From the NCBI GenBank assembly GCA_965223265.1, contig OZ244999.1, positions 6,720,001 to 6,784,000 of the forward strand: DNA of 64,000 bases, given 5' to 3'. Each line of letters starts with the position of its first letter. Position 1 is the first letter of the stretch. Source of the DNA: Planctomycetota bacterium (GTDB lineage: Bacteria > Planctomycetota > UBA8108 > SXIK01). Under the pieces are notes generated by a model. The model searched no databases and had not been told where the DNA came from. It saw only the letters and a program-made list of their open reading frames with translations. A program made the position numbers and the translations under genes. This document shows, in pieces, positions 1 to 19,893 of this stretch.

Positions 1-3000
1 GACCGGACGACGAGCTCATAAGCACGCCGTGTTGCCCATTCCCGAGATCGAGCGTCCCCGTTTTGTCGGTGCCAATGAAGTTGCCGACAACTTGATTCCC
101 GCTGCCGGATCCGAAGAGAGTCACGCCGTTGACGTTGTCCCCGATGACGTTGGCGTCGCTGAAACTCGTCGAACCGACCACATTGCTCGCTCCGCCGCTG
201 ACGAATACACCATTACTTGTGTTACCAAGCGCAAGAGTGCCGCTTACGTCGACTCCAAGATGGCTTGCGACGATGGTGTTGGAGTCTGAGAGAATGAGGA
301 CACCGTTACCGGACGCGCGGTTGATCGTCAGCGCACGAAGTGTACTCCCCGAGCTGGCGGCCTGCAGCTCAAGACCATCACCGGGTCCGGCAGACGAGCC
401 ATCGATCTCGACGATCGGAGCGTCGACATACCCAGGCTGCGAAGACCCGTCGATTACGACCGTGTCGGTGATCGCGGGCAGCGGTGAGGTCGGAGCGATG
501 CTCCACCAGCTTCTCGCGAAGTCAGGGTCGGGGTTGACCAGCGCTGCGTCCGTGGCCGCGGTCGTCGCCGTGACGTTTGCCAGTGACACTTGCCCAGCGA
601 CGCCGTCGTCGACGTAGTAGAAGTGCCCCGCGTCAATCGCCGGAATGTTGAAGAGAATCGACACCGTACCCCCCGTAGCGTTGGCGGCCAGGATCGCCTC
701 AGGCAACGAGATACCGTCGCCTCCATCGCTCGCAATGAGCGACGCGACGGAAGTCGTGACTCCATTGACAGCGTCGCTGGTCGTTGTCACGGTGAGGATC
801 AACGGCGTCGTCGCGAGGTTTTGCGCAAACTCCGACGTGTCGGCGTAGGTGTCGGCGCCTGTCTTGACCGTCGCTGTCGCCGTGACTAACTCGCTAACGG
901 CGACGGTAGCGCTCAGGGTGACGTCGAAAGTCGCGCTGCCGCCTCCATCCGTGGTCACCTCGGTGAAACCGAGTAAGTTCTCTCCTTCGCCGTGACTTGG
1001 GACGGTAGAGGTATCGCCGGTCACGTTGGCGAAGAACTCGATGCGGAAAGTTGTCGCCGCCGTACTCGACAGAGAGCCAGAGATGGTGACCGAGTCCACA
1101 CCGTCGGTTCCCGCGTAATCGATCACCGGGAAGTTCTGGAGGTTGTTCGAGCCAACGTCGATGTCACCCGCGTCGTTGGCAGTCAATCCGTCCGCGGTGC
1201 TCGTGTTGCTAAGATCGATTCCGAGACCGCTATTCGAGTGGATCGTGTTGCCGAGAATGGCATTCCCTGCCCCGTCGAAGACGAACACACCTTCGTCGCC
1301 GTTGCCGACGATGACGTTCCCTTCACCGACCCCTGTTCCGCCAATCAGATTGTTATTCGACGGCGGATTTCCACCAACCGAATCGCCGAAGACGACCACA
1401 CCTTCGTCAGTGTTGCCGATGAGAACTGTCTGTGTCGCGTCGTAGCCGATGATGTTGCCTTGGACGACGTTCCCATCGGAGCCGTCGGTGATCGTGACGC
1501 CGTCGTCGTCGTTCCCGGAGATGAGGTTGTTGAGGACGAAGTTGCCGTCCCCGAAGAAAATGTTGATGCCATCGCCAAGGTTGCCGAGGTCAAACGCCCC
1601 GTTGACGTCGGTGCCGATGTAATTCCCCTGGATCACATTGCCGGTGCCAAGATCGATACCGACACCAGAGAGGGTGTTCGCGGAGATAATGTTTCGATCA
1701 CTGACGTTGGGCCCACCGATCGTGTTGTTGTTGCCACCGTCAATGTTGACGCCGGTCGCCTCGTTGCGGAGCGACGGCACGCCGGTGCCGGCCGCGTCCG
1801 GTCCAATGTAGTTGCCGGCGATGGTGTTGTTATCGCCTGTGATGTAGATACCGTCGTCGCCGAACTGACTGACGATGAGGCCGCGGATCGTGCTGTCGTT
1901 CGTATTCAACACCAGGCCGTCGATGCCAACGGCAGTCGAGCTGCCGTCGAGCTCGACGACAGGCGCACCGGCATAGCTCGGCTCACTGGTGCCGTCGATG
2001 ATGATGGGGTCGGTGATCGCCGGCAGCGCACCGAGCCCGGTCGAATCGACCACGATGGTGTGCGGCCCGCCACCCGCGATGTTGAAGAGGATCGTGTCCG
2101 TGCCAATGGTCGCATTCGCGGCGGTGATCGCCTCGCGGAGAGAGATTTGCCCGTCCACGCCTGGATTCGAGAGCAGCGCTGCCACCGAGGATGTATCCGG
2201 AGCGTCGAGCGTGTCCGCAGTCGTGTCGACGACAAGAGCCGTCACGAGTCGGGCGACGAATGCATCCTCGGCGCCGCCAAGCGGCCCGTGAGTGATCGGG
2301 CCGGCAACGGAATCGAAGACGGTGTTCGTCGTGTGGCCGGAGACTGATGCTCGACCGTCCGTGTCGACTGCGATGCCCGTGGCAACGTCGGTGCCGGTGC
2401 CGCCAAGGAAAGTCAAATAATGCAAACGTTCCAGGTCGGCTGAGAAGATCGCAGCGAAAGCATCCGTCCCACCGTCGAAGTCGCCGTCGTGAGCATGTGG
2501 TGTAGCTGGGAGGTTAGAAGAAGCCGTCGATCCGACGACATGCACTCGCCCAATCGCGTCGACGAAGATTTCACGCGCGTCGTCGTTATCACTGCCTCCC
2601 AAGAACGTCGAGGCGACAAGCGTCGCCGCACCGCTTTGGGTTGTGTCGATCCGCAGGACAAACGCCTCCTCGGCGCTGTCGAACGAAGTGTCGAATCCAT
2701 CGACCGTGGTCGGGAACAGAGGCGACGCGGTCTTTCCTGTAACGTAGACGCTTCCGTCTGCGGCGAGAGCCACCGCGAGCGCCTCGTCAACTCCGACGTC
2801 ACCTAGGAACGTTCCATAGAGGAGCGAGGTACCGGAACTTTCAAGAACGGCCAAGAAACCGTCGGACGTTCCGCCGCCGAACGTCGAGTCGAACGCATTT
2901 GGCGTCGCGAAATCGGTCGAGTCGGTGATGCCGGTGATGTAGATGTCGCCGGCGGTATCCACCGCGACGTCAGTCGCGTTGTCGACCGCGCTGCCACCGA

Positions 3001-5668
3001 GATAGGTCGATATGAGCAGCGACGAGTCGCCTGACTGTGAAGAGTCAAACGTGGCAACCCAGGCGTCGTCCGTCCCATCGAGAACGGTATCGTACGCACT
3101 GCGTGTTGTCAGGTCCGAAGATGTGGTGCCTCCCACTACGTACGTGATGGCGGCGGCATCGACGACGAGGTCTCCCACTGACTCGGAACCCGTTCCACCA
3201 AAGTACGTAGAGTAGTCGAGTGTGTTGCCGCTGGAGTTGATGCGGGCGACGAAAGCGTCGTTTGTGCCGGAAAGACTGCCTTGGAAGGCACCAGAGACCG
3301 GCAGGTCGTTCGAACTTGTCGTCCCGGCGAAGTGAACGTTACCGCTCGCGTCGACGGCAATCCCCTCGACGCTGTCCGCCGCCCCGCCACCAAAGTAGAG
3401 CGAGTAGAGCAGACTTCCGGTCGCGTCCAACTTCATCACGAACCCGTCCTGGCCACCAGCTGGGGTGAGCCCTAGCGTGCCCGCGGTCGGGAAGTCGGTA
3501 GAATCAGTCTGACCGGCAACGTAAACGTTTCCGGACGCATCCACTGCGATATCGTTGGCTCGATCGACGGCCGTGCCGCCGAGAAAGGCGACGTAGTCAA
3601 GGATCGGATCGATGACGAGCGGCACGCTTGGGTCGTAGGCACCCAATGCGAATCCCACGCTACCGTCTTCGAAGTGGCTGTAGCTGCTAGCGACAAGTTG
3701 CCGACCTTCAGCGCTGTCCTGATAACTCACGGGCGCCTTGAAGCGTACCGTTTCGCTAGATCCGGAAAGCGTCAGCACGAGGTCGCCGTTCTCCGCCACC
3801 ACCACATGATCGGCACCGGAGAACCGAAGCCTGATCGCGTCGGTGTCGGCGCCAGGCGCGACCTCAAAGTCGAACTCGAGGCGGCCGTCGCTCCCATAGT
3901 ATCGGACGTCGACTCCGTCGTAGACGTCGGTGTAGGAGACCTCACCGTAGTTGGCAATTCCGGTCAGCCAAGCCTCCGGGTCACGACCGAGAAAATAGCT
4001 CGTCGTGCTCTCGAGGAGGTCTCCGCCTGAGGCGCGGGCCAGTGCGTCACCGCCGACCAGATCCATACGCAGGACGTGATCGGAATCACCCGCGTCGAGC
4101 GCCACGACGGCGCCGGCGTCGGCCAGGAAGATCGAGTAACCGCTTCCTTGCGCGAGAAAGTCTACCGCGGCGTCGCTCTGGCCGACATTCGCTTCGAAGC
4201 GAATCGGAACGTCCGTGAACACCGACGTGGAAGCGGACGTTTGAGGCAGCTCAGCGTCGTCGGCGTCGAGTGTCGCGGTGTCAGTCGGCGAGTGTTCTTG
4301 GGCTAAGCTCTCTTGTTCCGGCTCTTCAGTAGCGTCGAGTTCCAGGTCCGACAACGCGACCTGGTCCGGTGACGCGTCGGTCGTGATCTCAGCGCTGAGA
4401 TCTTCATCCGTCTCCGCTGCGACGCTTTCCGTCGCTTCGGGGACGGAGACGCCGTCAGCGCCAGCCCCTGACTGCTCCGCGGGCGTGGTTTCTGCTATTT
4501 GGTCAGAGGCTCCGTCGTCAACGTCGGTTTCTTGCAAGAGAGCATCCGACTCGTTCCTGGGATACTCGCCGGCATCGTCTTTGCTCACTGCTTGATCTGA
4601 ATCAAAGTTCTTGGCCGGCTCCAGCGGCACCTCAGCGGGATCGGTCTCTGTCGCCGACTCAGACGGTTCAGAGCCCGAAAGAGCCGCTTCGACGAGAACT
4701 GACGCCGAGTCGGCGTCCGTCGTCGGTTGACTCTCTCCAAGTGCAGACGCGTCGACGACCTCGGTGTCGTTCGAGGTCGTGATGATATCTGTGACGTCCT
4801 GTTCCGGCGCTACGGCGGAGACACCGTCGTCGTGCACGGTCGTCCCATCGATCGCATCGTCAGCGAAGTCGCGAACGACGGCGCTAACAAGTCGCTCGAC
4901 GGTGACGCCGTGCTCCGCCGTCTTCTCCGCGGCGACGCGAAGACCCGGCGCCTCGGGATGCGGATGCAGGCGCGGCTTGGACGGTGCATCGAGATGAGAG
5001 TCTCCGCGTGAGTTCGCTTCGGCGATCTGCGTCGCGACGGCCGGCAACATGGTGCCGCGGCTCCAAAGCGCCGCGACCGAGTCGTCACTCGTCCCGTCGA
5101 CCGCTGCATCGGTGGTACGATCCGACGGATCGATGGCATCGATGGTGACATCGATAACGTTGCCGCCAACGACCTCGTCGAGAGTGTCGACGTTGCCGAT
5201 CTCCGCGGAGTTGGCTTGCGCTGCGGAATCACTCGACGCACTCACGTGCTCTTCGGCGTCGGAAGACGGTTCAGAATCGAGAAACACGATGTCGAATCCG
5301 TCTCGATGGTCGGCCGCACCAGATGGGTGAGTCCTATCTGTCTCTCGATCGAGATGTTCCGATCGGTCACTCTCCGGAGTCGGAGTCGACGCATGACGCG
5401 AGTCGACCTCAACTTCCTCGAGCGCATCGGCCAGCTCAAGATGGAATCCTGCCGTGGCGTCGTAAGCACCGACGTCGATCACGACGCCGTCGACGACTGC
5501 GCTCTGACTTGCGGCAACCTCCGAGGCGAGTTCGATGCCCGGAACGCTGTCAAGAACACTGGCCGCACCGCTGCCGACCATCGCCATGGCATCGAGCGCG
5601 ACGCCGGCGGCATCAGCCGAGAGCAAAATCCTCGGTTCAAGTTCTTCCAGCGAGTAACTGTCGCGCAC
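1..5668 (-). CDS. Giant LEPRxLL-domain surface/secreted protein, 3' end beyond window (>1,889 aa): acidic linker, DUF7948-like domain, SBBP beta-propeller repeats, CSLREA-like/beta-helix repeats
   Basis: Manual translation: GTG at 5668 (in-frame TAG at 5681-5683 bounds it) gives VRDSYSLEELEPRILLSAD. The same frame gives VPIRFEANVGQ (~4190), YSTYFGG..GIAVDASG repeats (~2300-3600), ISLREAITAANA (~2130) and GTLDLGNGQHGV at the window edge. The ORF track lists no stop-bounded ORF in this frame, consistent with an unbroken ORF. Confidence 0.9.
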   Translation of the reverse strand, partial: MRDSYSLEELEPRILLSADAAGVALDAMAMVGSGAASVLDSVPGIELASEVAASQSAVVDGVVIDVGAYDATAGFHLELADALEEVEVDSRHASTPTPESDRSEHLDRETDRTHPSGAADHRDGFDIVFLDSEPSSDAEEHVSASSDSAAQANSAEIGNVDTLDEVVGGNVIDVTIDAIDPSDRTTDAAVDGTSDDSVAALWSRGTMLPAVATQIAEANSRGDSHLDAPSKPRLHPHPEAPGLRVAAEKTAEHGVTVERLVSAVVRDFADDAIDGTTVHDDGVSAVAPEQDVTDIITTSNDTEVVDASALGESQPTTDADSASVLVEAALSGSEPSESATETDPAEVPLEPAKNFDSDQAVSKDDAGEYPRNESDALLQETDVDDGASDQIAETTPAEQSGAGADGVSVPEATESVAAETDEDLSAEITTDASPDQVALSDLELDATEEPEQESLAQEHSPTDTATLDADDAELPQTSASTSVFTDVPIRFEANVGQSDAAVDFLAQGSGYSIFLADAGAVVALDAGDSDHVLRMDLVGGDALARASGGDLLESTTSYFLGRDPEAWLTGIANYGEVSYTDVYDGVDVRYYGSDGRLEFDFEVAPGADTDAIRLRFSGADHVVVAENGDLVLTLSGSSETVRFKAPVSYQDSAEGRQLVASSYSHFEDGSVGFALGAYDPSVPLVIDPILDYVAFLGGTAVDRANDIAVDASGNVYVAGQTDSTDFPTAGTLGLTPAGGQDGFVMKLDATGSLLYSLYFGGGAADSVEGIAVDASGNVHFAGTTSSNDLPVSGAFQGSLSGTNDAFVARINSSGNTLDYSTYFGGTGSESVGDLVVDAAAITYVVGGTTSSDLTTRSAYDTVLDGTDDAWVATFDSSQSGDSSLLISTYLGGSAVDNATDVAVDTAGDIYITGITDSTDFATPNAFDSTFGGGTSDGFLAVLESSGTSLLYGTFLGDVGVDEALAVALAADGSVYVTGKTASPLFPTTVDGFDTSFDSAEEAFVLRIDTTQSGAATLVASTFLGGSDNDDAREIFVDAIGRVHVVGSTASSNLPATPHAHDGDFDGGTDAFAAIFSADLERLHYLTFLGGTGTDVATGIAVDTDGRASVSGHTTNTVFDSVAGPITHGPLGGAEDAFVARLVTALVVDTTADTLDAPDTSSVAALLSNPGVDGQISLREAITAANATIGTDTILFNIAGGGPHTIVVDSTGLGALPAITDPIIIDGTSEPSYAGAPVVELDGSSTAVGIDGLVLNTNDSTIRGLIVSQFGDDGIYITGDNNTIAGNYIGPDAAGTGVPSLRNEATGVNIDGGNNNTIGGPNVSDRNIISANTLSGVGIDLGTGNVIQGNYIGTDVNGAFDLGNLGDGINIFFGDGNFVLNNLISGNDDDGVTITDGSDGNVVQGNIIGYDATQTVLIGNTDEGVVVFGDSVGGNPPSNNNLIGGTGVGEGNVIVGNGDEGVFVFDGAGNAILGNTIHSNSGLGIDLSNTSTADGLTANDAGDIDVGSNNLQNFPVIDYAGTDGVDSVTISGSLSSTAATTFRIEFFANVTGDTSTVPSHGEGENLLGFTEVTTDGGGSATFDVTLSATVAVSELVTATATVKTGADTYADTSEFAQNLATTPLILTVTTTSDAVNGVTTSVASLIASDGGDGISLPEAILAANATGGTVSILFNIPAIDAGHFYYVDDGVAGQVSLANVTATTAATDAALVNPDPDFARSWWSIAPTSPLPAITDTVVIDGSSQPGYVDAPIVEIDGSSAGPGDGLELQAASSGSTLRALTINRASGNGVLILSDSNTIVASHLGVDVSGTLALGNTSNGVFVSGGASNVVGSTSFSDANVIGDNVNGVTLFGSGSGNQVVGNFIGTDKTGTLDLGNGQHGVLMSSSSG

Positions 5669-6565
5669 GGTGCAGTCAACCTAGAGAAGGCAAGAGAATC
5701 GATCGATTTGAAGGGAGGCGTTCCCTCATGGTTTCTATCGGACAGCCCAGGGAACGGCACCAGCACAGCAAACCTCATCCTCGTAATCAGCGTTTTCTTC
5801 ACGACTTCCGATGGGCCTGTAACCATCCGCGACCGACCAACGATCGACCAACGACCGTACGGACCGTCCCCTCCGTCCCCACCTCAGTGCACAAGACCTC
5901 GGCATCGACATCGAACGACGCTCGCACAGTGAACCCGTGACTCCGGGAAACGAAACCGCTGGAAGACGCCCTCGACGCGTAGCGAGGTAGCTGCGCTGTG
6001 ACCTCGCGTTGCGATTGGCGAAGCAAAGAGCAACACAATGCATGGACGCGAAGCAGCCGCGCGCGGCTTGCAGTTCGCAGTCAGATTCCAAGAGACGCAT
6101 CACAAGTGAACAGATTTCAGCGATCTGCTACGACCTCGCCCCAGAGCTGAGCGCAGGCTGTCGCGCGAGACTGTCGCACTTGCCACCGATCCAACCGCGG
6201 AAACCGCTCCGTCTGGACCACGCTGACATTCAGCGTGACTCGCCGTCACGCACCCCTTCCATGCTCAGATAGGCACTCGTTGCGAAACTACGTGAGAGTC
6301 GCAAACTAGACAAACACCGCCCGGGACGCGCGCGGAGATCCCGCGGTTCGCGGCGCCGATGCCAAGACCGCGGCAGCATCGCCGCGAGTCGCCGATTGCG
6401 GGGCAAGACGCCACGGCTGAAGTCGTCCCGTTAAAACTAGACGACGTTGTGACTGTTGTCTTGCCGGAGGCGCTGTTCGGCTCAACTGCCCTCTTGCAAC
6501 TTCTCGGGTACCGATCTAATCTCTCCCGAAACGCCCCCACCACCGACGCCTTCCTGGAGTTTGCC

Positions 6566-6970
6566 ATGAGCACCGATTCGTCGAGAGTCTTCCTGGAAAA
6601 ACTCGAAGAGCTCGAGTCTCTGCGCGCTGCCGAGATACCCGCCGACCGCCGCATCTCACCGCGTGTTCCGGTGCGTGGTGAAGCCGAGATGTTGGCTATC
6701 TCGGGAACCAGCGTGACGTCGAACCTTCTGCCGATCCAGATCCGTGACATCTCTTGGGCTGGGCTAGGATTCTTGTGTAGCGAAAAGCTCGTAGCGGATT
6801 CGCACTGGCGCATCTGCTTCATGGATCACGGCGAACAAATGGGGCAAGGCCGACTCATGGTGCGCCACTGTCGCGAAGTCAACGAGGGAATTTGTCTCGC
6901 TGGCGGCCTGTTCGTCATCGAAGCGTCGATTCCCGCACTTTTTGGTGTGCGCACGAGCGAACTTTCGTGA
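6566..6970 (+). CDS. Stand-alone PilZ-domain (c-di-GMP receptor) protein
   Basis: RxxxR (DRRISPR) and DxSxxG (DISWAG) motifs; GGAG upstream of ATG 6566. Confidence 0.8.
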   Translation: MSTDSSRVFLEKLEELESLRAAEIPADRRISPRVPVRGEAEMLAISGTSVTSNLLPIQIRDISWAGLGFLCSEKLVADSHWRICFMDHGEQMGQGRLMVRHCREVNEGICLAGGLFVIEASIPALFGVRTSELS

Positions 6971-7591
6971 TTGGCGTGCTTTGCGCCCGCCGGTTTCGGC
7001 ACCTCGTCTGAAGCGCCAAGACGTCGCCTGCACGGTGCACGACCTCCGACGCCAGCGGCGGCTCGAAGACGGACGAAGGCGCTCTCGTCGTCACTCTTTT
7101 TCAGGCTCTCGGATTCGGGTGGGGTGAGCGAAAAGTGCCGCATGAGCCCCGACGCTCGTCTGCGGCAAAGAACTCGCGTGATCAGACAGAAAGAGTAGCG
7201 TACGAACACGCCTTCTGCAGCCATCGCGGGCGCCCCGCCCTCGCCGTCGGAAGCCTTCGCGCGGAGCTAAGGGCGCCACCGTCGTGACTACGCTTCGCGC
7301 CGACGAGTGCACAATCGCTCGGGGCGACGCCATAGGTTCTCCGCGATCATATCTTCCTTGCTCCGTGCTTATCGGAAGCGTCCAAACGCGGTCCGTTTGT
7401 CGCTCCGTCTTACGTTCGCCACAGCCGCTGAACGCGAATAGACGACTTTCAGCTCGAAGCACCATTTCTCCACAGACTGCATATATATCATCGTCACGGT
7501 CTACCCCGCGGGGAAGGGCCGAAACAGTTGAAGATTCCATCAAAGTTCAGCCGATCTTTGTTGTGTCCAACATCGGTACTCGACCGACGCA

Positions 7592-9574: not shown

Positions 9575-9585
9575 GGATCGACGCG

Positions 9586-11769
9586 ATGGCGGGAACAAAT
9601 CACACAACCACGACCGACCGCGGCGCTGGAAGCTCCACAGCGAGCCCTTGGTGGGCACGTGTGGCCGATTTGCGTCCGCGGGTGCGGTCTCACGTCCGCC
9701 TCCATCGCCATGAGTATCGAGGTCAGGTCTGGTATGTCCTACAAAACCTGTTCAATTCACGGCACTTTCGACTGCCACCCAACTCCTATCTTCTTCTGGA
9801 GCTGATGAATGGCGTTCGAACAGTTGACGACATCTGGCAGGAAGCGAAGAGTCGCTTAGAAGACGAAGCTCCAAGCCAATCTCAGTGCATCCATCTGCTG
9901 TCGCAGCTTCACGTCGCCGATGCAATGACGTGTGACACGTCGCCCGACATCTCTCAGATGCTCACTCGATTCGAAAAGCGACATCGGCGTAAGTGGCACG
10001 AAGTATTGATGTCACCCCTGTTCTGGAAGCTGCCCTGCTTCGACCCAGAAAAATTTCTAGAAAAGGCCGCACCGTTGGCGAGGCCACTCTTCGCAAAGTG
10101 GGGCTTGCTCGCCTGGATTTCGGTAGTGGGATACGCAGCATCGCTGGTGGTCACCCACTGGCCTGATCTGACGGAGAACATCAGGGATCGAGTCTTTACC
10201 CCACAAAGCCTATTTCTGCTTTGGATTCTCTTCCCGATCTTGAAGACGATCCACGAGTTCGGCCACGCGATCGCCGTCAAGGTGTACGGCGGCGAAGTTC
10301 ACCGCGTCGGACTAATGCTTCTCGTCCTGACGCCGTTGCCATACATCGACGCCTCGGCTGCTTCCACCTTTCGCCGCAAACGAGAACGCGTAATCGTCGG
10401 ACTCGCGGGCATGATGGTCGAGCTTTTCGTTGCATCGATAGCGTTCTTTCTGTGGCTAAACGTCGAAGCCGGTACCGTCAAGACGATCCTCTACAACGTC
10501 ATTCTCCTCGCCGGTGTCACGACGGTCCTTTTCAACATCAACCCACTTCTGCGCTTCGACGGCTACTATGTTCTCTCCGACCTGATCGAAATCCCAAACC
10601 TTCGATCGCGATCGACCCAGTATCTACGCTACTTGATTGAACGCTACGTCTTCGGAGTTCGATTGCCTGCGTTCAATGCGGCCAAGAATGAACGCATGTG
10701 GCTTGTCAGCTACTCCGTTCTCTCGTTTCTCTACCGGATGATGATTCTCACAGGAATCATCATCTTCATCGCCGGGAAGTTCTTCTTCGTCGGCATCCTC
10801 TTGGCACTCTGGGGTTTCTCGTGTTGGATCGCCTGGCCGCTCTGGAAGAGTGGCCGCTACATCTTGACGCATCCCCGTCTCGATGCCGTTCGAGTGCGAG
10901 CTGCAGCGTCGGCGGCGGCAATCTTGCTTGCAGGCATCGTCCTTGTCTGCGCGATTCCTTTCCCCCTTGGTACGTACTGCGAGGGTGTCGTGTGGGTACC
11001 GAACGAGGGCGCCGTTCGTTCGACGGCAGACGGGTTCGTCACTTCGGTGCCGGCCGCTTCCGGGTCGACGGTGACCAAGGGTACGACGCTCATCGTTTGC
11101 GAGGATCCGATCGTCGACACGGGAATCGTGGCTCTTGAGGCAGAGCTTGAGGCACTGCAAGCGGAGTACGACAACGTCTGGAGACACGATCACGCCAAGG
11201 CAAAGATCGTCGATGAGAAGATCTCCCAAATCAAATCTAAGCTCTCCCGACAGATCGAGCGGCGCGCAGACCTCACCGTCGCGGCGCATTGCGACGGCAC
11301 CTTGGTGCTCCCTGTTTCTCAAGATCTCGTAGGGCGTTTCGTGGAGCAGGGAACGCTACTGGGCCACGTGCTCGATCTTGAGCAGGTGAAAGTACGCGTC
11401 GTCGTACCAGAGGGGTCGATCGATCTTGTTCGCGACACAACGAGGGCTGTTGAGCTTCGTCTAGCCGAGCGCGTCGGCGCGACCGTCCCGGCAAAGGTGG
11501 TTCGGGAAGTACCAGCTGTCTCGCAGGAGCTTCCGAGCGTCGCACTCGGAACGAGCGGCGGCGGCAGTATCGCGGTCGACCCTGCAGACGCCAAAGGCCT
11601 CACCGCACTGGATCGGTTCTATCAATTGGAACTCGAATGTGCGACGGCGGGTGGTGTCGTCAACGTCGGTGGCCGGGCGTTCGTACGCTTCGACCACGGC
11701 TGGGAACCGCTCGCGTGGCGCTGGTACCGCAGTGTTCGCCGACTTTTCTTGCGCCGCTTCAGCGTTTAA
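9586..11769 (+). CDS. PqqD/RRE-like + site-2 (M50) metallopeptidase + HlyD-like fusion protein
   Basis: N-terminal LLELMNGVRTVDDIW (PqqD-like), HEFGH and NINPLLRFDG M50 motifs, multiple TMs, C-terminal adaptor hairpin; start uncertain (9556 or 9586). Confidence 0.85.
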   Translation: MAGTNHTTTTDRGAGSSTASPWWARVADLRPRVRSHVRLHRHEYRGQVWYVLQNLFNSRHFRLPPNSYLLLELMNGVRTVDDIWQEAKSRLEDEAPSQSQCIHLLSQLHVADAMTCDTSPDISQMLTRFEKRHRRKWHEVLMSPLFWKLPCFDPEKFLEKAAPLARPLFAKWGLLAWISVVGYAASLVVTHWPDLTENIRDRVFTPQSLFLLWILFPILKTIHEFGHAIAVKVYGGEVHRVGLMLLVLTPLPYIDASAASTFRRKRERVIVGLAGMMVELFVASIAFFLWLNVEAGTVKTILYNVILLAGVTTVLFNINPLLRFDGYYVLSDLIEIPNLRSRSTQYLRYLIERYVFGVRLPAFNAAKNERMWLVSYSVLSFLYRMMILTGIIIFIAGKFFFVGILLALWGFSCWIAWPLWKSGRYILTHPRLDAVRVRAAASAAAILLAGIVLVCAIPFPLGTYCEGVVWVPNEGAVRSTADGFVTSVPAASGSTVTKGTTLIVCEDPIVDTGIVALEAELEALQAEYDNVWRHDHAKAKIVDEKISQIKSKLSRQIERRADLTVAAHCDGTLVLPVSQDLVGRFVEQGTLLGHVLDLEQVKVRVVVPEGSIDLVRDTTRAVELRLAERVGATVPAKVVREVPAVSQELPSVALGTSGGGSIAVDPADAKGLTALDRFYQLELECATAGGVVNVGGRAFVRFDHGWEPLAWRWYRSVRRLFLRRFSV

Positions 11770-11779
11770 GGAACCCCTG

Positions 11780-13501
11780 ATGTTTACCACGCACTTCATA
11801 CCGCGTCCTCTACGAGGCGCCTATGCCGAGCGGTCTCCCGACGAGAGAGTCTTGCGAAGAATTCCGCTCGCACCTCTAGCAACAAAAGCCATCGCCCGCC
11901 TACAGCTTCACAAGGTCAACAGTATCATTCGGCACGTGTTGGAACATGAAGAGACCTTCTACGGCCTCTCCATGGACAAACTTCGATGCGAGATCGCCGC
12001 GACGCGATCCGCCTTACGAAGCGAAGGCATGACCCGTGCCGTCGTTGGCCGCTGTATCGCACTCCACCGCGAGGCATTCACACGCTTGGAGTCACGTCAT
12101 CCTCCGATTTCGCACGCTCTCGCGACACTCGAGTTGCTGCGGGGACGCGCAGTCGAAGTCGATGACCCGTCGGCGCGCCGCTTCGCGGTTCTCGCCGCAA
12201 GCTCGATCGCAGCCCTCGCGGGTGTGCCCGTTCACGTGATTTCCACAACAGACGACGACGCCAAAAGGAATGCAAACGATGCTGAGGAACTCTGCAGCAT
12301 CACTGGGGTGCGAATCGGAACGATCCGTTCCGGTTTGTGTGCTACTGAACGACGCGCAGCGTACGCTCAAGACATCACGTTCGTGGCCGCCGACGAAGTC
12401 GCCCTCGATTCATTGCGAGATCAACAACTTCTCGGCGGTTCGCCGAGCAGGCTTCGCCTGAATCTCGAGAACGTCGCGTCGTCACGACCTCGAGAACGCT
12501 TCCTTCTCCTTCGAGGACTTCACTGCGCCATCATCGACGGTATCGACGATGTCCTCCTGAGTGCGAACGCCAGACCTGTTCAGCTCCACGCGCCGGTCGC
12601 GTCCTCCTCCGAGAGACCCGACAGCTCGGCGAACAGACAGCCGCTTGCGGTGAGCAGCTATCCAGCATTCTTCACGCGATACTTGCAGATTGCGGGCGTC
12701 GGCTCCTCGCTTAGTCAAAGGGTCGACGAGCTCACCGCGAGTTACAATCTCTCTGTAGTCAGTGTAGCTGGCTGCAAAGCTAGAGTGGCGAACGTTACAG
12801 AACGACAAGGTCAGCGCAGGATCTTTCGAAGGGACGGAGACTACTGGCAGGCGCTCGTCGACCGCGTCGGCTCACTCTGCCGTGCCGGCAATAGGCCGAT
12901 CGTCGCCATGGCAACCGTAGAGTCTCTAGACGAGCTCGCCGCCCGCCTGGCGACAACGCACGTCCCCTTCCAGACGCTCCCCATGAGTCGCGAGTCACAA
13001 GGGACACCGTCAAGGAAAGAGTCGGAGCTCACGTCGCGATGCTCAAGTAAGACCGCTGCGGCCATCCTAACGACCGACACGGCGTTGAGCCAAGTGGAGG
13101 TCGCTCGGCTGTCGCAGATCGGAAGCGGTGGAAGCCACCTCATCACCACTTACTGCGGCGGCGCGGCAACGGCACGGCGATTCTTTCACCGACTGCCGCG
13201 AACGGAACAACCCATCGTTCACGAGGAGTACCTGTCGTGCGAGAGCGAACTCGCCCTGGCGAAGCTTCCGTGGTGGTGTCGATTGCTGGAGCGCTCGCCT
13301 CGGCTGCAGCGACAACTCTGGGTAGGGAGGGTTCTTCTTTGGTCGGCGCAAAAACGATCCGAACGTCTTGCCCGCGCCATGCGACGCCGAACGGCGCGCC
13401 AAAGTGACCTTCTCCAAGAGCAAGTGAAACAAACACTCGCGTTCTCCGGAACCTACACAAAACCACAAACGCGACCAGACCCGTCTATCGCGAAACGGTA
13501 G
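11780..13501 (+). CDS. Degenerate SecA_DEAD-like protein (probable pseudo-ATPase)
   Basis: SecA-like segments VHVISTTDDDAKRNA, RRAAYAQDITF..DSLRD, AFFTRY and C-terminal LAFSG; Walker A and DEAD motifs substituted; AAGGA RBS before ATG 11780. Confidence 0.75.
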   Translation: MFTTHFIPRPLRGAYAERSPDERVLRRIPLAPLATKAIARLQLHKVNSIIRHVLEHEETFYGLSMDKLRCEIAATRSALRSEGMTRAVVGRCIALHREAFTRLESRHPPISHALATLELLRGRAVEVDDPSARRFAVLAASSIAALAGVPVHVISTTDDDAKRNANDAEELCSITGVRIGTIRSGLCATERRAAYAQDITFVAADEVALDSLRDQQLLGGSPSRLRLNLENVASSRPRERFLLLRGLHCAIIDGIDDVLLSANARPVQLHAPVASSSERPDSSANRQPLAVSSYPAFFTRYLQIAGVGSSLSQRVDELTASYNLSVVSVAGCKARVANVTERQGQRRIFRRDGDYWQALVDRVGSLCRAGNRPIVAMATVESLDELAARLATTHVPFQTLPMSRESQGTPSRKESELTSRCSSKTAAAILTTDTALSQVEVARLSQIGSGGSHLITTYCGGAATARRFFHRLPRTEQPIVHEEYLSCESELALAKLPWWCRLLERSPRLQRQLWVGRVLLWSAQKRSERLARAMRRRTARQSDLLQEQVKQTLAFSGTYTKPQTRPDPSIAKR

Positions 13502-13526
13502 TCCAACAAAAGATCGGGACAAGACC

Positions 13527-14414
13527 ATGCTGCAACGATTCACCTCCAACCCTCTAGCGCCTCCCCTACTGAAGAGAGTTTCGCGCCGCGTAAAGCTAGC
13601 CCTGCCTCTCGCTCTCGCCGTCGTGCTGACGGGACTGAGAAGCCAGGGTGACGAGCCAGGGCAACGCCTCACAGAGTTCGACGGGGTGACGGAGCCCTCG
13701 CAAGAAGTCCTCGTCGCCGCCGCTGCGGATGGACTGATCGCATCGATCGAAGTCGATCGTGGCAGCACGGTGGCGAAGGGACAGATCGTTGCGACGCTCG
13801 AGTCGAGCGTTCAAGCAACACTTTTAGACGTCGCCGAAGCACGAACAGAGTTGACTGCCGATCTCAGACGACAGGAGGCGAGCCTCGAATTCCACCGACT
13901 GAAGGAGCAGCGGGATGAACGCCTTTTCCAAAAAGGAATCATCTCTGATCAGGTCTTCGCCCAAAGCCATCGCGATCGACGCCTGGCCGAAGCGAACCTG
14001 CTCCAAGCCGAAGAAGATTTGCGTCTCGCCAAGCTCGAGAGAGATCACGCTCAGGCAAGGTTGACCCAGCGAACCATCCGCAGTCCTCTCGACGGCGTCG
14101 TGGTGGAGCGTCTTATGTCACCTGGCGAACTGGTCACTCAAGGTCGCAACGCAGAGATTCTGAAAGTTGCGCAGATCAATCCTCTCCACGTCGAAGTCAT
14201 TCTCCCGGTTGAGATCTTCGGCTCCGTCGAGGTTGGAATGCTGGCTGAGATTCGACTTGATTCTTCTGCCGACACTCACCCGGCGGCTGTCACTGTTGTC
14301 GATCGCGTCGTCGACGCCGCCAGTGGCACGTTCGGAATCAGGCTCGAGCTCGCCAACGAAAACGGTGATATACCGGCCGGAGTCAAATGTCGCGTTCGAC
14401 TGGTGCGGGAATGA
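13527..14414 (+). CDS. Efflux RND-type periplasmic adaptor subunit
   Basis: AAADGLIASIEVDRG, coiled coil, IRSPLDGVV, VDAASGTF, PAGVKC. Confidence 0.85.
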   Translation: MLQRFTSNPLAPPLLKRVSRRVKLALPLALAVVLTGLRSQGDEPGQRLTEFDGVTEPSQEVLVAAAADGLIASIEVDRGSTVAKGQIVATLESSVQATLLDVAEARTELTADLRRQEASLEFHRLKEQRDERLFQKGIISDQVFAQSHRDRRLAEANLLQAEEDLRLAKLERDHAQARLTQRTIRSPLDGVVVERLMSPGELVTQGRNAEILKVAQINPLHVEVILPVEIFGSVEVGMLAEIRLDSSADTHPAAVTVVDRVVDAASGTFGIRLELANENGDIPAGVKCRVRLVRE

Positions 14415-16159
14415 CCATCGTCTCCCCCCGCCTTCCCACCACTGAACCCACGAACCGTTTGGTCTACCTCACGAACGCGCGGAGAACCTGTCTGGATGCG
14501 TCCGTGAGCCGCCTGACGCTGCTGTGGGCAACTCTCTGCCTGGGCCTCGCGACGCAGCATAGCGACGCCGCGCCACGCAGCAGCGCGAAATCGACGGCGA
14601 TTGCGCCGAAAGACATGTCATCGTCTGTCGACGTCGCAACGCGATCGAGCGGCGCACAAGCGGAGAAGGCGATCATAGAGATTTCCGTCGAGGAAGCGAT
14701 TCGCATGGCACTCGCGAATAGCTTTGACGTCAAAATCGCTTCGACCGGCCACAGAATTCGACAGCGCGAAGTGGCGATCGAGAGAGCCGAGTTCGACCCT
14801 TTCTTCTTCGGAGGTACGGACTACTCCAAGAATCGCAAGCCGACAGCCAGCTTTCTTGATGTAGGCAATACCGCACTTCAAGGCGTCACGAATAACCCGT
14901 TCGAGACGTGGAGCTACCACGTTGGCATCGGCGGAAAGTCCTGGCTGGGAACGCTCTACAGTGTGGAGCTGCGCCACTCAGCCCTCGATCAACCACTGGC
15001 CAACCAAACAATCTTCGGCATCAACCCGCAGGAACAGGTCACCGCGACATTTGAGGTCACACAGCCCCTCCTACGTGGAGGTTGGCAGCAGTACAACTCT
15101 GCGCGAATCCGCATCGCCGCAAACGACGAGCAGATCTCGCAGCACGACCTGAAGCACCGCGCTACCGAAATCCTATACTCCGTCGAAGTCACCTATTGGC
15201 GACTTAGCTATGCAATCAAGAACTACGAGTCGAAGCAAAAAGCTCTTCAAGCGACGAACGACTACCTCGCGATCGTACGGACAGCTCACGAGGCTGGCGC
15301 CATGTCTGTCAGCGATTTGCTGTCCGCGAAGAGCCAACTGGCGCTGCGCAAAGTAGAACTCAACGAAAGCCTTGTTCTCGTTCGCGACACACGCGATCGG
15401 CTGCTTCTTTTGGTCAATCGCGGCGGCGGCGAAGAATCGCTCAAGGAAAAGTGGCGCAACGGCGTTCTCGAACCGACCTTTGACGACGTCTGGGTCATCC
15501 CGACGTCGGAACCTGACACGACTCCGATGTCACCGAGCCGAACTCAGTCTCTCGAAATCGCATTCGATCAGCGCGCCGACTACAGACAACTACTTCTCCA
15601 CGACAAAAGCCATCGAGTCGGTGCTCAAGTAGCAAAGAACGAGTCGCTCCCGGATCTCAACGCCCTGTTTCGGTGGCAACAATTCGGCCTTGACGACGAC
15701 TTCGGTGCGTCGTATTCCTCGCTGGGTGACGGGGACTTTTACGGCTGGACGGTTGGGGTGGAGCTTCGATTTCCGCTCTTCAATCGCGGCCCCAAGGAGC
15801 GTTACTGGCAAGCTCTCGACCGGATCTCTGAGACCAATCTCCGACGCAGAAAGCTGGAGAATCAAATCGTCGCACAAGTCGACCAGAGCATTCGCAACCT
15901 CGCGGCGATCCAGGAGAGGCTGGCGGATTTGGCCGAACGGGTCGAGCTTCAAAACGAGCTTCTGCAGCAAGAGCGCGACAAGCTCCAGCTCGGAAACGCG
16001 ACCGTCTACAACATCACGCTGATGGAAAACGATTTGTTAGAAAGCGAGGCTCTCTCGCTTCGAGCAAAGTCAGAATATCAGGCGGCGAAGGCCGACTACG
16101 CACGAGCGATTGGCACACTACTCTCTGATCGCGGCGTTGAAACAATGGGGACCGAGTAA
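14411..16159 (+). CDS. TolC-family outer membrane channel
   Basis: EEAIRMALANS, VTQPLLRG, SLPDLN, ELRFPLFNRG, alternating helical/beta OEP pattern; ATGA overlap with upstream adaptor. Confidence 0.85.
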   Translation: MTIVSPRLPTTEPTNRLVYLTNARRTCLDASVSRLTLLWATLCLGLATQHSDAAPRSSAKSTAIAPKDMSSSVDVATRSSGAQAEKAIIEISVEEAIRMALANSFDVKIASTGHRIRQREVAIERAEFDPFFFGGTDYSKNRKPTASFLDVGNTALQGVTNNPFETWSYHVGIGGKSWLGTLYSVELRHSALDQPLANQTIFGINPQEQVTATFEVTQPLLRGGWQQYNSARIRIAANDEQISQHDLKHRATEILYSVEVTYWRLSYAIKNYESKQKALQATNDYLAIVRTAHEAGAMSVSDLLSAKSQLALRKVELNESLVLVRDTRDRLLLLVNRGGGEESLKEKWRNGVLEPTFDDVWVIPTSEPDTTPMSPSRTQSLEIAFDQRADYRQLLLHDKSHRVGAQVAKNESLPDLNALFRWQQFGLDDDFGASYSSLGDGDFYGWTVGVELRFPLFNRGPKERYWQALDRISETNLRRRKLENQIVAQVDQSIRNLAAIQERLADLAERVELQNELLQQERDKLQLGNATVYNITLMENDLLESEALSLRAKSEYQAAKADYARAIGTLLSDRGVETMGTE

Positions 16160-17535: not shown

Positions 17536-17577
17536 TGCATACTGGGCGTCTTCAGCGAAACAGTTTTTGCCGACAAC

Positions 17578-18735: not shown

Positions 18736-18987
18736 CTGGGAGTTTGGCCACTCAGCACCGAAGTGGCAAGCACTTCGTTTGCGTGAGCGCGGGCGTGCGG
18801 CCGGCACAAGTTTTCGCTAGAACGGCTCGGAAACCCTTGTCCTACGGCTCGATCTCGGTTGTGGAACCCGGTGCCCTTGCTACTTGACCGCCCTCGCACA
18901 CGCAGACGCGCACCGACGTGAAGCGCTTCTCTTTCGCGAGCCAATCGATCTGAGGTCCGGCGAAGCGCAGCGCGCGACATCACTCGA

Positions 18988-19893
18988 TCAGGAGAGCATC
19001 TTGAGCATCGCCGCAATGCGGTGCGCACGTCGCGTGTCGCTCTGATCCCAGTAGACCTTGAACAAATTGTTCAACGTTCGAATCAGGATCGCGTCGTCTG
19101 TGGCCGAGTCGAAATGCTCGTCCCGGAAACCAACGCCAGCAACGTTCAGGAGCCGAACGCAATCATGTACGGTGAGAAGTCTGCCGCGGTTGAATGCATC
19201 GATGAATAGTTCGCCGCTGTCGCCTTGGTACTTGAGGAGGAAATGCTGCGGCATACACACGCCATGCACTTGGAGCGACAGCCGTCGGCAAACGAGGAGC
19301 ACAACCGTCGCCAGGCTGATCGGGATGCCGCGTTTCTCATCGATGACTCGGTTGACGTAGCTGTTCTCGGGACGGTAGTAGTCCTTCAGCGGCCGCCCTG
19401 AATAGCCAAGTTCATCGAAGAAAAGCTTACGCAACTTGTTCATGGCATCATCGAGGCTACCCCCAGACAAGCGCAAGCGAAGCGTGGCGGCGTAGTCGTC
19501 GAGAATGTCCGCATAGCGCTCGACGTCGCAGTAAGGATCCTCCGTCCGGGCTAAGAGAAACACACCGGTCTCTAGGTCACGGTCCTTTTGACGGCAATAC
19601 TGTACCCACTCTCGGAACACCTCACGGCGACGCCACTCCAGTACGAACCTCTGAGCCTGCACCTTGACGCGTTCGTCTGTCGATTCCCGTGCGGCGTGGC
19701 GAATACTTGGCAGCGCGGGACCGCCGATCCGCTCTAATTCCTCCCATGCCACCGTCAAGATCTTGCGATCCTCGTCCCCGAGCAAGGAGACGAGCGCCTC
19801 GATGCGCGAGAGCGGCACTCGCTGTCCGCGGTTTGCCCCTGATGAAGGCAACGGCGTGCCCCCTCGTTCACTCGCTGATCTGTTTTCGGACAT
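18988..19893 (-). CDS. SirB1/transglutaminase-like (Transglut_core2) protein with N-terminal HEAT-like segment
   Basis: YYRPENSYVNRVIDEKRGIPISL, GVCMPQHFLL, FIDAFNRG. Confidence 0.85.
   Translation of the reverse strand: MSENRSASERGGTPLPSSGANRGQRVPLSRIEALVSLLGDEDRKILTVAWEELERIGGPALPSIRHAARESTDERVKVQAQRFVLEWRRREVFREWVQYCRQKDRDLETGVFLLARTEDPYCDVERYADILDDYAATLRLRLSGGSLDDAMNKLRKLFFDELGYSGRPLKDYYRPENSYVNRVIDEKRGIPISLATVVLLVCRRLSLQVHGVCMPQHFLLKYQGDSGELFIDAFNRGRLLTVHDCVRLLNVAGVGFRDEHFDSATDDAILIRTLNNLFKVYWDQSDTRRAHRIAAMLKMLS

Follow-up and report, generated by a model that had tools for sequence, protein, structure and literature searches.

A LEPR-XLL giant adhesin gene beside a divergent operon for a probable leader-guided export and processing machine, with a SecA-like subunit lacking ATPase motifs, in a planctomycete

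The window, a 64 000 nt stretch of a planctomycete chromosome, carries near its left end a gene set that probably forms a leader-guided machine for the export and processing of a giant LEPR-tagged protein, with a motor subunit that in this genome appears to be non-catalytic. Five genes (7592–16159, plus strand), with gaps or overlaps of 10–37 nt between neighbours, are transcribed divergently from the giant LEPR-XLL gene, and the 1.9 kb spacer between them contains a small PilZ-like ORF. All six genes lie where the earlier note had placed them, and the tight, co-oriented arrangement that it described holds, as does its observation of three adaptors and one TolC protein with no ABC, RND or MFS gene in the cluster (by Pfam, three operon products have HlyD domains and one is an OEP protein). 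Its broader interpretation, a dedicated export machine with the M50 protein as inner-membrane component and LEPRxLL as an N-terminal targeting signal, is supported in part.

Positions 1–5668 (minus strand) hold the 5′ part, or first 1889 codons, of the giant gene, identified by NF012209 and its Pfam domains. The earlier note gave its product as longer than 1889 aa; the full extent is 8707 codons, the gene continuing 20.5 kb past the window start to a stop at genome position 6699545, 20 455 bases before it, and the 26-kb reading frame is still open. The LEPR-XLL leader motif (…SLEELEPRILLSAD…; 5588–5653, minus strand; NF012209) occupies about residues 6–27, and residues 7–27 match NF012209 LEPR-8K with 25.1 and 30.6 bits (cut-off 17), so that this 8707-aa protein has the 24-residue N-terminal motif above the curated cut-off. 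Across 30 aligned leaders E11 and R13 do not vary, and E8, L10, P12, L15, L16, S17, A18 and D19 are conserved in at least 90 %. The protein is acidic (10.5 % Asp, 0.5 % Lys), has no cysteine, and contains DUF7948, SBBP, Beta_helix/NosD, Cadherin_4 (18 copies), Big_9, Ig_SibA and Laminin_G_3 domains, with one GGxGxD match in 8707 residues. The reported lack of a hydrophobic Sec signal is borne out by a simple hydropathy scan, which found no hydrophobic stretch in the first 5000 residues; the C-terminus has, by hydropathy, a hydrophobic segment (8640–8658) and a charged tail. The giant is thus a cysteine-free, acidic cadherin/beta-helix adhesin and probably the cargo of the adjoining gene set.

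Co-occurrence and synteny, the checks that the earlier note had proposed, link LEPR proteins strongly to the five-gene set. The 9.18-Mb genome has a single LEPR match over the cut-off, the giant itself, and 4 kb from it a single M50-HlyD gene. Of 79 M50-HlyD-carrying genomes from many phyla, 61 have LEPR matches above the cut-off, and none of 14 control genomes does; the 18 cluster-bearing genomes without a match are mostly incomplete MAGs. For 58 of 123 LEPR ORFs an M50-HlyD hit is present on the contig, and 47 of these, from 36 genomes, lie within 12 kb of it, while M50-HlyD paralogues each have their own LEPR neighbour in G027 (three pairs), G021 (three) and G050 (two). In a sample of 401 genomes of the phylum, with only 20 (LEPR) or 2 (M50) candidates scored per genome and related genomes being non-independent, 48 had both, 55 only M50-HlyD, 3 only LEPR and 295 neither; the M50-HlyD gene is therefore present in 48/51 LEPR-positive and 55/350 LEPR-negative genomes (Fisher odds ratio 86), and collapsing to the 30 families listed gives 6, 3, 1 and 20 (p = 9e-4). 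LEPR is absent from 55 of the 103 M50-positive phylum genomes, including 9 of 41 with a high-scoring M50-HlyD, so there must be other cargos or variants of the leader. Nor are the two always adjacent: G279, of the same family as the window's genome, has its 11 600-aa LEPR gene 5.46 Mb away from the cluster, and in five single-contig genomes of the phylum (G080, G234, G268, G349 and G409) the LEPR genes, read by eye, are at least 300 kb away. Our literature search found no published link between the gene set and LEPR giants.

For the RRE-M50-HlyD protein (9538–11769, plus strand; assigned by profile matches, AF2 model and VIA-align), comparison with aligned homologues suggests a true start near 9586. 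A cytoplasmic PqqD-like domain (about residues 38–134) is followed by a seven-helix M50-like metalloprotease, with HEFGH at 239 and NINPLLRFDG at 333, and a periplasmic HlyD adaptor (474–733). The AF2 model (pLDDT 80.9) yields all three folds in VIA-align comparisons: residues 38–134 resemble RRE–leader structures (5v1u_A, TbiB1–leader, Z 9.3; 6jx3_B, Z 9.1; 8t19_A, Z 8.9), the M50 part resembles RseP (9j83_A; Z 9.3, a middling value for a helical domain, rmsd 4.2 over 164 aligned residues), and the HlyD part matches membrane fusion proteins with Z 13–14. The RRE named in the earlier note thus stands by fold, with a winged helix, a three-stranded sheet and a predicted added leader strand, and in homologues, many of which match PF05402; in the window the Pfam PqqD match is weak (E 0.05). 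Likewise PF02163 (Peptidase_M50) scores 17.9 bits against a gathering score of 27.2 in the window and labels many homologues, and the M50 motifs and S2P core fold are both present. The closest NCBIfam profiles are daptide_HExxH (NF041824; 165.7 bits, below the equivalog cut-off of 300; E 1.6e-48; model positions 1–354 of 379) and YydH/LiaK (NF058609; E 6.7e-11, well under cut-off). HExxH and NPxxxxDG are invariant in 58/58 M50-HlyD homologues, and the window copy keeps 85 invariant columns. With all S2P catalytic residues retained, the protein is more likely, judged from sequence, to be a leader peptidase or receptor than just the inner-membrane component of the earlier note.

Modelling of the leader with M50-HlyD gave ipSAE values of 0.64, 0.62 and 0.64 (best of three controls, 0.00), with at least 70 % of contacts in common between runs and a leader pLDDT of 49–51. 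The pass mark for ipSAE is reached by 116/157 solved complexes and 2/215 mismatched pairs, counts that are valid only roughly here since the complex was built on our own alignments. In the models leader residues 3–20 and 22–23 contact RRE residues 67–83 and 110–127, a predicted leader strand pairing with residues 75–79, and the leader also contacts M50 residues 232–243, 260–276 and 328–357, including H239, E240, H243, N333 and D341. The LEPR leader is therefore predicted to lie both along the RRE strand and within the catalytic cleft of M50, and the earlier proposal of a targeting signal finds support in the narrower sense of an element recognized by the M50 protein. We note that the strand mode looks like that of solved RRE–leader complexes and may have been reproduced by the model from these.

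The SecA-like (SecA_DEAD) protein (11780–13501, plus strand; 573 aa; PF07517, 100.2 bits) is the unusual member of the set. The earlier note rightly called it SecA-derived and missed that Walker A, DEAD, motif III (GMTGTA), motif V/VI (GRGTDI) and the arginine finger have all been replaced and that the preprotein-binding domain (PPXD) is wholly deleted. With 83.3 bits to TIGR00963 (cut-off 800) it falls outside the SecA/SecA2 translocases; the true SecA of the genome is encoded at 691–3360 on the minus strand of L128. The AF2 model (pLDDT 71.8, NBD1 >90) keeps NBD1, NBD2 and one long helix, and its best PDB match is SecA (3jv2_A; E 2.6e-22, TMq 0.65). The open frame is 28 % identical to P0011, to which family members are 48–61 % identical, and this deep divergence implies that the motif loss is old. 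Between the window and G279 the SecA-like proteins score 153 bits, as against 551 between G279 and G102, while for the same pairs M50-HlyD scores 661 and 640; the SecA-like gene has thus diverged at an accelerated pace and the other cluster genes at a normal rate. All four motifs searched as regular expressions are present in 64 of 84 homologous ORF hits, the remainder being mostly cut by locus ends, and the same loss is seen in G253 and G049, which keep the other cluster genes. Loss of these motifs leaves the locus with no obvious energy source for moving 8707 residues, and it could be functionally impaired; but the open frame, SecA fold and conserved neighbours suggest a non-catalytic scaffold here. 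New at this locus is the disappearance of all five ATPase motifs and PPXD from a SecA-like subunit whose fold and neighbours are kept.

GAF-HlyD (7592–9574, plus strand; Pfam GAF 1.3e-6, HlyD_3 7.3e-20) has a cytoplasmic GAF domain, a single membrane helix (393–411, hydropathy scan) and a periplasmic HlyD-type adaptor, and is 46 % identical to its G279 orthologue. The small periplasmic HlyD/RND_mfp adaptor (13527–14414, plus strand; TIGR01730, 126.3 bits, cut-off 94.9; HlyD_D23 1e-16) has, by eye, an N-terminal signal or anchor, and the TolC-family outer-membrane factor (14387–16159, plus strand; Pfam OEP 4.5e-37 in two stretches; TIGR01844 56.9 bits, below the cut-off of 225) a signal peptide, also judged by eye. 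The PilZ-like ORF (6359–6970, plus strand) has no Pfam match, and 28 of 30 ESM Atlas feature hits are to PilZ clusters (best score 0.95); with RRxxxR and DxSxxG motifs seen by eye, it is probably a c-di-GMP receptor. An internal ATG may be its real start. Together with a PAS-GGDEF gene at the locus, the PilZ-like ORF and the GAF domain suggest that c-di-GMP or cyclic nucleotides regulate the system.

A conserved partner ABC or RND pump, which the earlier note had said would count against its reading, was sought in homologous loci and none was found: 108 flanking ORFs at 26 loci include no ABC exporter, RND or MFS protein and only an Opp-type importer, which also accounts for both ORFs with ABC motifs among 385 across 30 loci. 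In the window's genome no ABC protein exceeds the cut-off for the HlyB type (TIGR01846, best 373.1 against 725.55 bits) or the PrtD type (TIGR01842, best 230.6 against 510.15 bits); the best scorers are all distant from the locus, as are the generic ABC exporters, of which there are at least six. Giant adhesins and RTX proteins are exported by type I systems such as HlyB-HlyD-TolC and LapB-LapC-LapE, the latter with c-di-GMP control through LapD/LapG, and the type I signal is C-terminal, uncleaved and usually accompanied by RTX repeats. The window locus shares with these an HlyD-type adaptor and TolC duct, a giant adhesin that is acidic, lacks cysteine and has no Sec signal and, as in the Lap system, adjoining c-di-GMP genes. 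It differs in having no HlyB- or PrtD-type ABC transporter at the locus or in the genome, three adaptors in place of one, an N-terminal and probably cleaved signal, and a cargo with a single GGxGxD match.

Bacteriocins are exported by peptidase-containing ABC transporters whose C39 domain acts on double-glycine leaders. Both would follow the logic of a protease, fused to the export apparatus, that recognizes an N-terminal leader on the cytoplasmic side and cleaves it off, whereas the window protease is M50-like, intramembrane, RRE-guided and fused to an adaptor, and its presumed cargo is thousands of residues long. RiPP proteases of the RRE-HExxH type (NF041824, NF058609) share the arrangement of a PqqD-like RRE at the N-terminus with an HExxH membrane protease after it, and differ in lacking the C-terminal HlyD fusion, the operon with TolC and SecA-like genes, and the giant substrate. 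The closest precedent, also cited in the earlier note, is the conserved 'secondary SecA_DEAD' locus that Kamneva, Poudel and Ward (2015; PMC4452313) identified in silico; in the part of the paper available, they report GAF-HlyD, Peptidase_M50-HlyD, SecA_DEAD and an HlyD/biotin-lipoyl adaptor in the same order, OEP in some loci and no ABC transporter, in the same phyla. The window has one copy of this widespread set, with all five genes in one operon, and their order is the same in most of 30 homologous loci. That part of the paper proposes that SecA_DEAD supplies the ATPase and the M50 protein the membrane part, and does not name a cargo, the LEPR motif or the RRE (PMC4452313). The present analysis tests the link to a cargo and interprets the M50 site as a putative leader peptidase, and the SecA_DEAD copy, without ATPase motifs or PPXD, does not qualify as the ATPase envisaged.

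The invariant M50 catalytic residues, and a model that puts LEPR in the cleft, would also suit a role in processing only, in which RRE-M50 is dedicated to cleaving the leaders of LEPR proteins or to their quality control, much like a sorting-signal peptidase, translocation falls to housekeeping Sec or a distant ABC exporter, and adaptors and TolC only guide or hold the protein. The generic ABC exporters far from the locus are compatible with this, as is the fact that the window's genome, G253 and G049 have lost the SecA-like ATPase motifs and kept the other genes; moreover at least one published LEPR giant has, in the part of the source available, C-terminal RTX/serralysin domains that would suit classical T1SS export (PMC10868602). 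We think it unlikely, however, given that three adaptors and TolC are tied to the protease in a single operon, that 0/26 loci have a conserved pump nearby, that intact SecA-like motifs prevail in most loci (64/84 ORF hits), and that the giant has no Sec-type signal and the genome no HlyB- or PrtD-type ABC protein over cut-off.

Loss of all five ATPase motifs and PPXD could instead mark a decaying remnant, in which the motor is dead, export has stopped and the remaining genes have yet to gather lesions; DUF3467 and SapC, recurrent accessories at other loci, were not found in the window's genome. This seems quite improbable, since the SecA-like divergence is deep and the loss old (28 % against 48–61 % identity to P0011), while over the same time the cargo frame, M50-HlyD, GAF-HlyD, HlyD and TolC have stayed intact at a normal rate; the SecA-like gene still has an uninterrupted frame, its predicted structure is that of a SecA (NBD1 pLDDT >90), and two other genomes that keep the cluster show the same loss. 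The profile matches of the M50 part to daptide_HExxH and YydH/LiaK, and radical SAM genes near 4/26 loci, raise the further idea of maturation and export of a small RiPP-type peptide, the giant's adjacency being incidental. Both matches are far under their cut-offs, the window holds no precursor-like small gene or modifying enzyme, LEPR co-occurrence and adjacency are too strong for chance placement, and the leader predicted to dock is the giant's own, so that we give this idea very little credence.

The favoured reading, leader-guided export and processing of the giant, builds on gene content, motif states, co-occurrence, synteny, predicted folds and a predicted interface, from which binding, cleavage, translocation, energy source and regulation are inferred. 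The cytoplasmic RRE of M50-HlyD would bind the N-terminal leader (…L-E-x-LEPRxLLSAD) as an extra beta-strand and bring the LEPR motif to the HExxH/NPxxxxDG site within the membrane, where the leader is probably removed or processed. The three HlyD-type adaptors (GAF-HlyD, M50-HlyD and small HlyD) would span the periplasm as far as the TolC channel, and the giant would pass through this unfolded to the surface, under possible regulation by cyclic nucleotides or c-di-GMP via the GAF domain, PilZ-like ORF and PAS-GGDEF gene. The likely motor in most genomes is a shortened SecA that retains PPXD and the ATPase motifs; in the window's lineage the SecA-like protein may serve as a non-catalytic scaffold, with energy from housekeeping SecA, proton-motive force or extracellular folding. 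Motif-less SecA-like proteins in three genomes of apparently separate lineages would mean that translocation of more than 8000 residues needs no dedicated cytoplasmic ATPase in the machine. We suggest, only tentatively and with considerable doubt, that RRE-M50-HlyD, GAF-HlyD, HlyD and TolC form a distinct secretion pathway for LEPR-tagged proteins in which a RiPP-type domain reads the leader, an intramembrane protease of the conduit cuts it and the machine needs no such ATPase; if true, this pathway would serve some of the largest proteins known.

The five genes of the cluster all lie on the + strand, successive genes being separated or overlapping by 10-37 nt, in a genome of 9.18 Mb that is a single contig. 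They encode a GAF-HlyD protein (7592-9574; GAF, 1.3e-6; HlyD_3, 7.3e-20), an M50-HlyD protein whose HlyD domains accompany a weak Peptidase_M50 match (9538-11769), a SecA_DEAD protein (11780-13501; PF07517, 100.2 bits), a HlyD/RND_mfp adaptor of 295 aa (13527-14414; TIGR01730, 126.3 bits against a cut-off of 94.9) and an OEP/TolC protein (14387-16159; OEP, 4.5e-37). Divergent from them, and starting at position 5668, is a giant gene that runs past the edge of the window and has 8,707 codons in the genome; residues 7-27 of its product match NCBIfam NF012209 (LEPR-8K) at 25.1 and 30.6 bits, with a cut-off of 17. Gene calls and Pfam and NCBIfam matches thus confirm the earlier note's description of a co-oriented five-gene operon beside a divergent LEPRxLL giant. 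Between positions 5400 and 16600 there were no promoter-like sites (2.3 ± 1.5 in shuffled sequences) and 12 terminator-like sites (10.1 ± 3.0 in shuffles). The genes 3′ of the cluster (16243-20073), encoding an E2 2-oxoacid dehydrogenase acyltransferase, an M24 peptidase and a transglutaminase-like/HEAT protein, look unrelated to it.

Cysteine is absent from the giant protein, Asp makes up 10.5 % of it and Lys 0.5 %; it is built of DUF7948, SBBP, beta-helix/NosD, Big_9, SibA-like Ig and Laminin_G_3 domains together with 18 Cadherin_4 stretches. A hydropathy scan found no hydrophobic segment N-terminal of residue 5147. At its C-terminus (residues 8640-8707, in stretch L106) a hydrophobic segment precedes a highly charged Lys/Arg/Glu tail, resembling a C-terminal membrane anchor; the idea that such an anchor is conserved in LEPR giants was dropped, as only one of 16 neighbouring giants or C-terminal parts (in L050) is similar. 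We note a DDE transposase gene (L107:4757-6025, - strand) about 9.5 kb past the 3′ end of the giant gene.

Conservation of the M50-HlyD protein is high: of the 8,000 candidates scored, 6,737 have E ≤ 1e-10; the best 120 homologues are 713-727 aa long and 48-53 % identical, and many carry precomputed PF05402 (PqqD) and PF02163 labels. The hydropathy scan places about seven helices within residues 188-473, followed by a periplasmic adaptor, and the residues of the motifs HEFGH (at 239) and NINPLLRFDG (at 333) are invariant in 58/58 aligned homologues. An AF2 model (pLDDT 80.9) was matched by VIA-align wide search to three types of solved structure. Residues 38-134 resemble RRE-leader complexes (5v1u_A, Z 9.3, rmsd 3.2, 82 aligned; 6jx3_B, Z 9.1; 8t19_A, Z 8.9), residues 223-417 resemble RseP (9j83_A, rmsd 4.2, 164 aligned) at a Z of 9.3 that is middling for a helical domain, and residues 474-733 resemble membrane-fusion proteins (Z 13-14). 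The RRE and S2P parts were found by this wide search only, Foldseek with the whole model giving only membrane-fusion protein matches and a PDB sequence search matching only that same part. For the N-terminal two-thirds the best NCBIfam match is to a daptide RRE/HExxH protease (1.6e-48), at 165.7 bits and so below the equivalog cut-off of 300. The GAF-HlyD protein is predicted to have a cytoplasmic N-terminus, a single membrane helix (residues 393-411) and a periplasmic adaptor.

The earlier note had proposed that this gene set exports LEPRxLL giants, and their co-occurrence and synteny across genomes bear this association out. The window's own genome of 9.18 Mb has a single LEPR match over cut-off and a single M50-HlyD gene, separated by 4 kb. 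When a cross-phylum scan was made with the M50-HlyD alignment, using one genome per species, at least 541 stretches were confirmed, from which the best 80 loci, in 79 genomes, were kept. NF012209 scores over cut-off in 61/79 of these genomes (29/40 plus 32/39) and in 0/14 control genomes; the 18/79 without a match are mostly fragmented metagenome-assembled genomes, and frame lengths of 7,000-15,301 aa are common among the matches. The LEPR ORFs in the 79 genomes number 123, and 58 are on the same contig as an M50-HlyD match; the distance to that match is at most 12 kb for 47 of these, from 36 genomes, and at most 5 kb for 41, from 32 genomes. The 47 comprise 23 that are upstream and co-directional, 21 downstream and co-directional, two divergent as in the window, and one convergent; the upstream co-directional genes typically end 1.6-3 kb 5′ of the M50-HlyD gene, the space of GAF-HlyD. 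Two unpublished genomes (G003 and G031) are included in these tallies, and one adjacent pair comes from G031. A first synteny test, a regular-expression search for LEPR within ±10 kb, was positive at 10/80 loci and understated the adjacency, because the N-termini of genes 25-45 kb long fall outside such flanks. M50-HlyD paralogues each stand beside their own LEPR gene in three genomes, with three pairs in G027 (contig C1), three in G021 (C4 and C9) and two in G050 (C5 and C7), which suggests cognate pairs of machine and cargo.

The same association is seen within the phylum. Among 401 genomes drawn evenly, 51 are LEPR-positive, 103 are M50-HlyD-positive (E ≤ 1e-30) and 48 are both; 55 have M50-HlyD only, three LEPR only and 295 neither (odds ratio 86). 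The three exceptions with LEPR only (G270, G280 and G429) have weak LEPR scores, and 32/41 genomes with a high-scoring M50-HlyD (≥430 bits) have LEPR. Collapsed to the 30 listed families the corresponding counts are 6, 3, 1 and 20 (p = 9e-4), p-values here being indicative only, because related genomes are non-independent and few candidates (20 for LEPR, 2 for M50) were scored per genome. Adjacency is not universal: in G279, from the family of the window's genome, an LEPR gene of 11,600 aa is 5.46 Mb from the cluster, and in five single-contig genomes of the phylum, read by eye, no LEPR gene is nearer to it than 300 kb. Four genomes (G180, G129, G368 and G080) have a single cluster and 9-17 scattered LEPR matches, with the maximum of 17 in G180, in proteins of ordinary size (about 300-1,900 aa). 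This pattern of distant and multiple matches agrees with a common sorting tag for one machine, not confined to giants.

When 30 LEPR N-termini were aligned, a basic stretch was seen to be followed by Φ-E-x-L-E-P-R-Φ-L-L-S-A-D, in which E11 and R13 are invariant and eight further positions are at least 90 % conserved. A complex was modelled from M50-HlyD residues 30-470 (58-row alignment) and the N-terminal 60 residues of the giant (30-row alignment), with ipSAE values of 0.64, 0.62 and 0.64 against 0.00 for the best of three controls, at least 70 % of contacts in common between runs, and pLDDT of 49-51 for the leader partner and 72-74 for the M50-HlyD chain. The pass mark used is reached by 116/157 solved complexes and 2/215 mismatched pairs, counts that are only a rough calibration because our own alignments were used. 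In the model, residues 7-10 of the leader are paired with residues 75-79 of an RRE strand, and the LEPR residues themselves (10-13) lie against M50 residues 272-273, 344 and 354-357, with H239, E240, H243, N333 and D341 included in the interface. The prediction supports binding of the LEPR leader by M50-HlyD. Its RRE-strand mode is like that of solved RRE-leader complexes, from which the predictor may have reproduced it; such reproduction is less likely for the placement in the M50 site, since to our knowledge no solved complex has a leader in an M50 active site.

Homologous loci were searched for a partner pump, whose conservation the earlier note had named as refuting its hypothesis, and none is conserved in the 26 loci checked. 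The cargo hypothesis of the earlier note thus withstands both refuting outcomes that were examined, a lack of co-occurrence and a conserved pump. Motifs of both Walker A and ABC-signature type were present in 2/385 ORFs of 30 full-length homologous loci, both in one locus; Pfam assigns these two to an Opp/Dpp-type importer. No ABC exporter, RND or MFS protein was found by Pfam among 108 flanking ORFs of the 26 loci, a set from which 27 ORFs and four loci were left out for size or faulty ORF calls, and in the window's own genome no ABC protein of HlyB or PrtD type exceeds the curated cut-offs. The recurrent flanking genes encode DUF3467 (L011, L051 and L083), SapC (L058, L072 and L073) and OEP (three loci) proteins, and radical SAM/B12 genes adjoin the cluster at four of the 26 loci (L015, L026, L043 and L058); DUF3467 and SapC are absent from the whole of the window's genome.

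Proteins homologous to the SecA-like one are about 660 aa long, contain PF07517, PF21090 and PF01043 (the preprotein-binding domain, PPXD), keep the motifs EMxTGEGKT, VDEADS, GMTGTA, TNMAGRGTDI and RQLxGRxGRQGDPG, and are about 45 % identical to the housekeeping SecA of the window's genome. The window protein (573 aa) reads EVDDPSARR, IDGIDD, GVGSSL, AAAILTTDTA and RRFFHRLPRTEQP at the five motif places and lacks the PPXD of about 100 residues. Its predicted AF2-type fold is that of SecA, with a pLDDT of 71.8 (>90 over NBD1) and a best PDB match to 3jv2_A (E 2.6e-22, TMq 0.65). Its relative in G279 keeps all motifs; between the window and G279 the M50-HlyD proteins score 661 bits and the SecA-like proteins 153 bits, and between G279 and G102 the values are 640 and 551 bits. 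Judged from these sequences, the motif loss is specific to the SecA-like gene in the window's lineage. The only other match in the window's genome, 46 % identical to the SecA-like family member P0011 and with a zinc-finger tail, is the housekeeping SecA, so that a second intact SecA-like motor was rejected.

Across the fetched loci, all four regular-expression motifs are present in 64/84 SecA-like ORF hits, a few genes being counted twice in overlapping loci and most of the others being cut by locus ends. None of these motifs is present in three genes only: that of the window, that of G253 from the same phylum (L098:14130-16106, +) and that of G049, a Burkholderiales metagenome-assembled genome (L054:12141-14072, +). 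The latter two are full-length genes within a cluster with all five ATPase motifs destroyed, in genomes where LEPR proteins are present and M50-HlyD is intact. From the occurrence of such genes in three genomes, the catalytic site of the motor has apparently been lost more than once. In pairwise comparison the window protein shares 23 % identity with the copy in G253 and, over 171 aa, 39 % with that in G049, values that speak neither for nor against a common origin. Such losses could mean that the window locus is decaying, a reading that we consider unlikely: the SecA-like protein has diverged deeply, and the 26-kb cargo frame and the other parts of the system are intact, which suggests to us continued selection on the system. 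The SecA-like protein of the window would then be a non-catalytic scaffold. Conservation of the LEPR motif despite the absent PPXD points to the RRE-M50 module as the receptor and not to the SecA-like protein. The mechanism is best stated as putative leader-guided processing and export via the adaptors and TolC, in which the SecA-like subunit here would be non-catalytic.

Several genes at the locus hint at regulation. The GAF domain of GAF-HlyD is cytoplasmic, and a small ORF at 6359-6970 (+) is PilZ-like: 28/30 Atlas hits are to PilZ clusters, mostly planctomycete (best score 0.95), and RRxxxR and DxSxxG motifs can be recognized by eye, with nothing in Pfam even at E 10 and an empty BLASTP comparison with the PilZ protein of L066. 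Directly 3′ of the giant gene, co-directional with it and outside the window, is a gene for a PAS-GGDEF diguanylate cyclase of 505 aa (L107:13940-15457, -). Elsewhere the cluster is flanked by GGDEF/EAL genes at three loci (L023, L027 and L077) and by a PilZ gene at one, L066. The likeness of this set to c-di-GMP control of giant adhesins is offered as a lead only.

The neighbourhood itself, with GAF-HlyD, Peptidase_M50-HlyD, a secondary SecA_DEAD, a HlyD/biotin-lipoyl adaptor and sometimes OEP, was described by Kamneva, Poudel and Ward (2015; PMC4452313), who pointed out that no ABC transporter is present, suggested that SecA_DEAD is the ATPase and that the M50 protein forms the membrane part, and regarded the biological role as wholly unknown. 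[quoted passage not shown] The gene set is already published, with no experimental study so far, and a literature search (SecA_DEAD, type I secretion, HlyD, M50, giants, TolC, adhesin) found no paper joining the LEPR tag to it.

Many of the largest proteins of bacteria are LEPR-XLL proteins. A single study was found that takes up how they are exported, the preprint on the C. chlorochromatii giants; one other paper mentions the tag only as an annotation name. If the present reading is true, a pump-less TolC-linked machine, whose membrane protease uses a RiPP-type domain to read an N-terminal leader, would represent a novel design of tripartite secretion system, and giant-adhesin export would be directly testable in cultured carriers such as Marinobacterium, Mesorhizobium, Pseudomonas or Methylobacterium. 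Cultured carriers met with in this analysis are Marinobacterium mangrovicola DSM 27697, Mesorhizobium sp. LjNodule214, Pseudomonas sp. MMS21, Puniceibacterium sediminis DSM 29052 and Histidinibacterium lentulum, and Kamneva and co-workers name Methylobacterium extorquens AM1. The window's lineage offers a natural experiment, in which the machine and a 26-kb cargo gene appear to have been kept long after loss of the SecA-like ATPase motifs, and it bears on the power source of the system.
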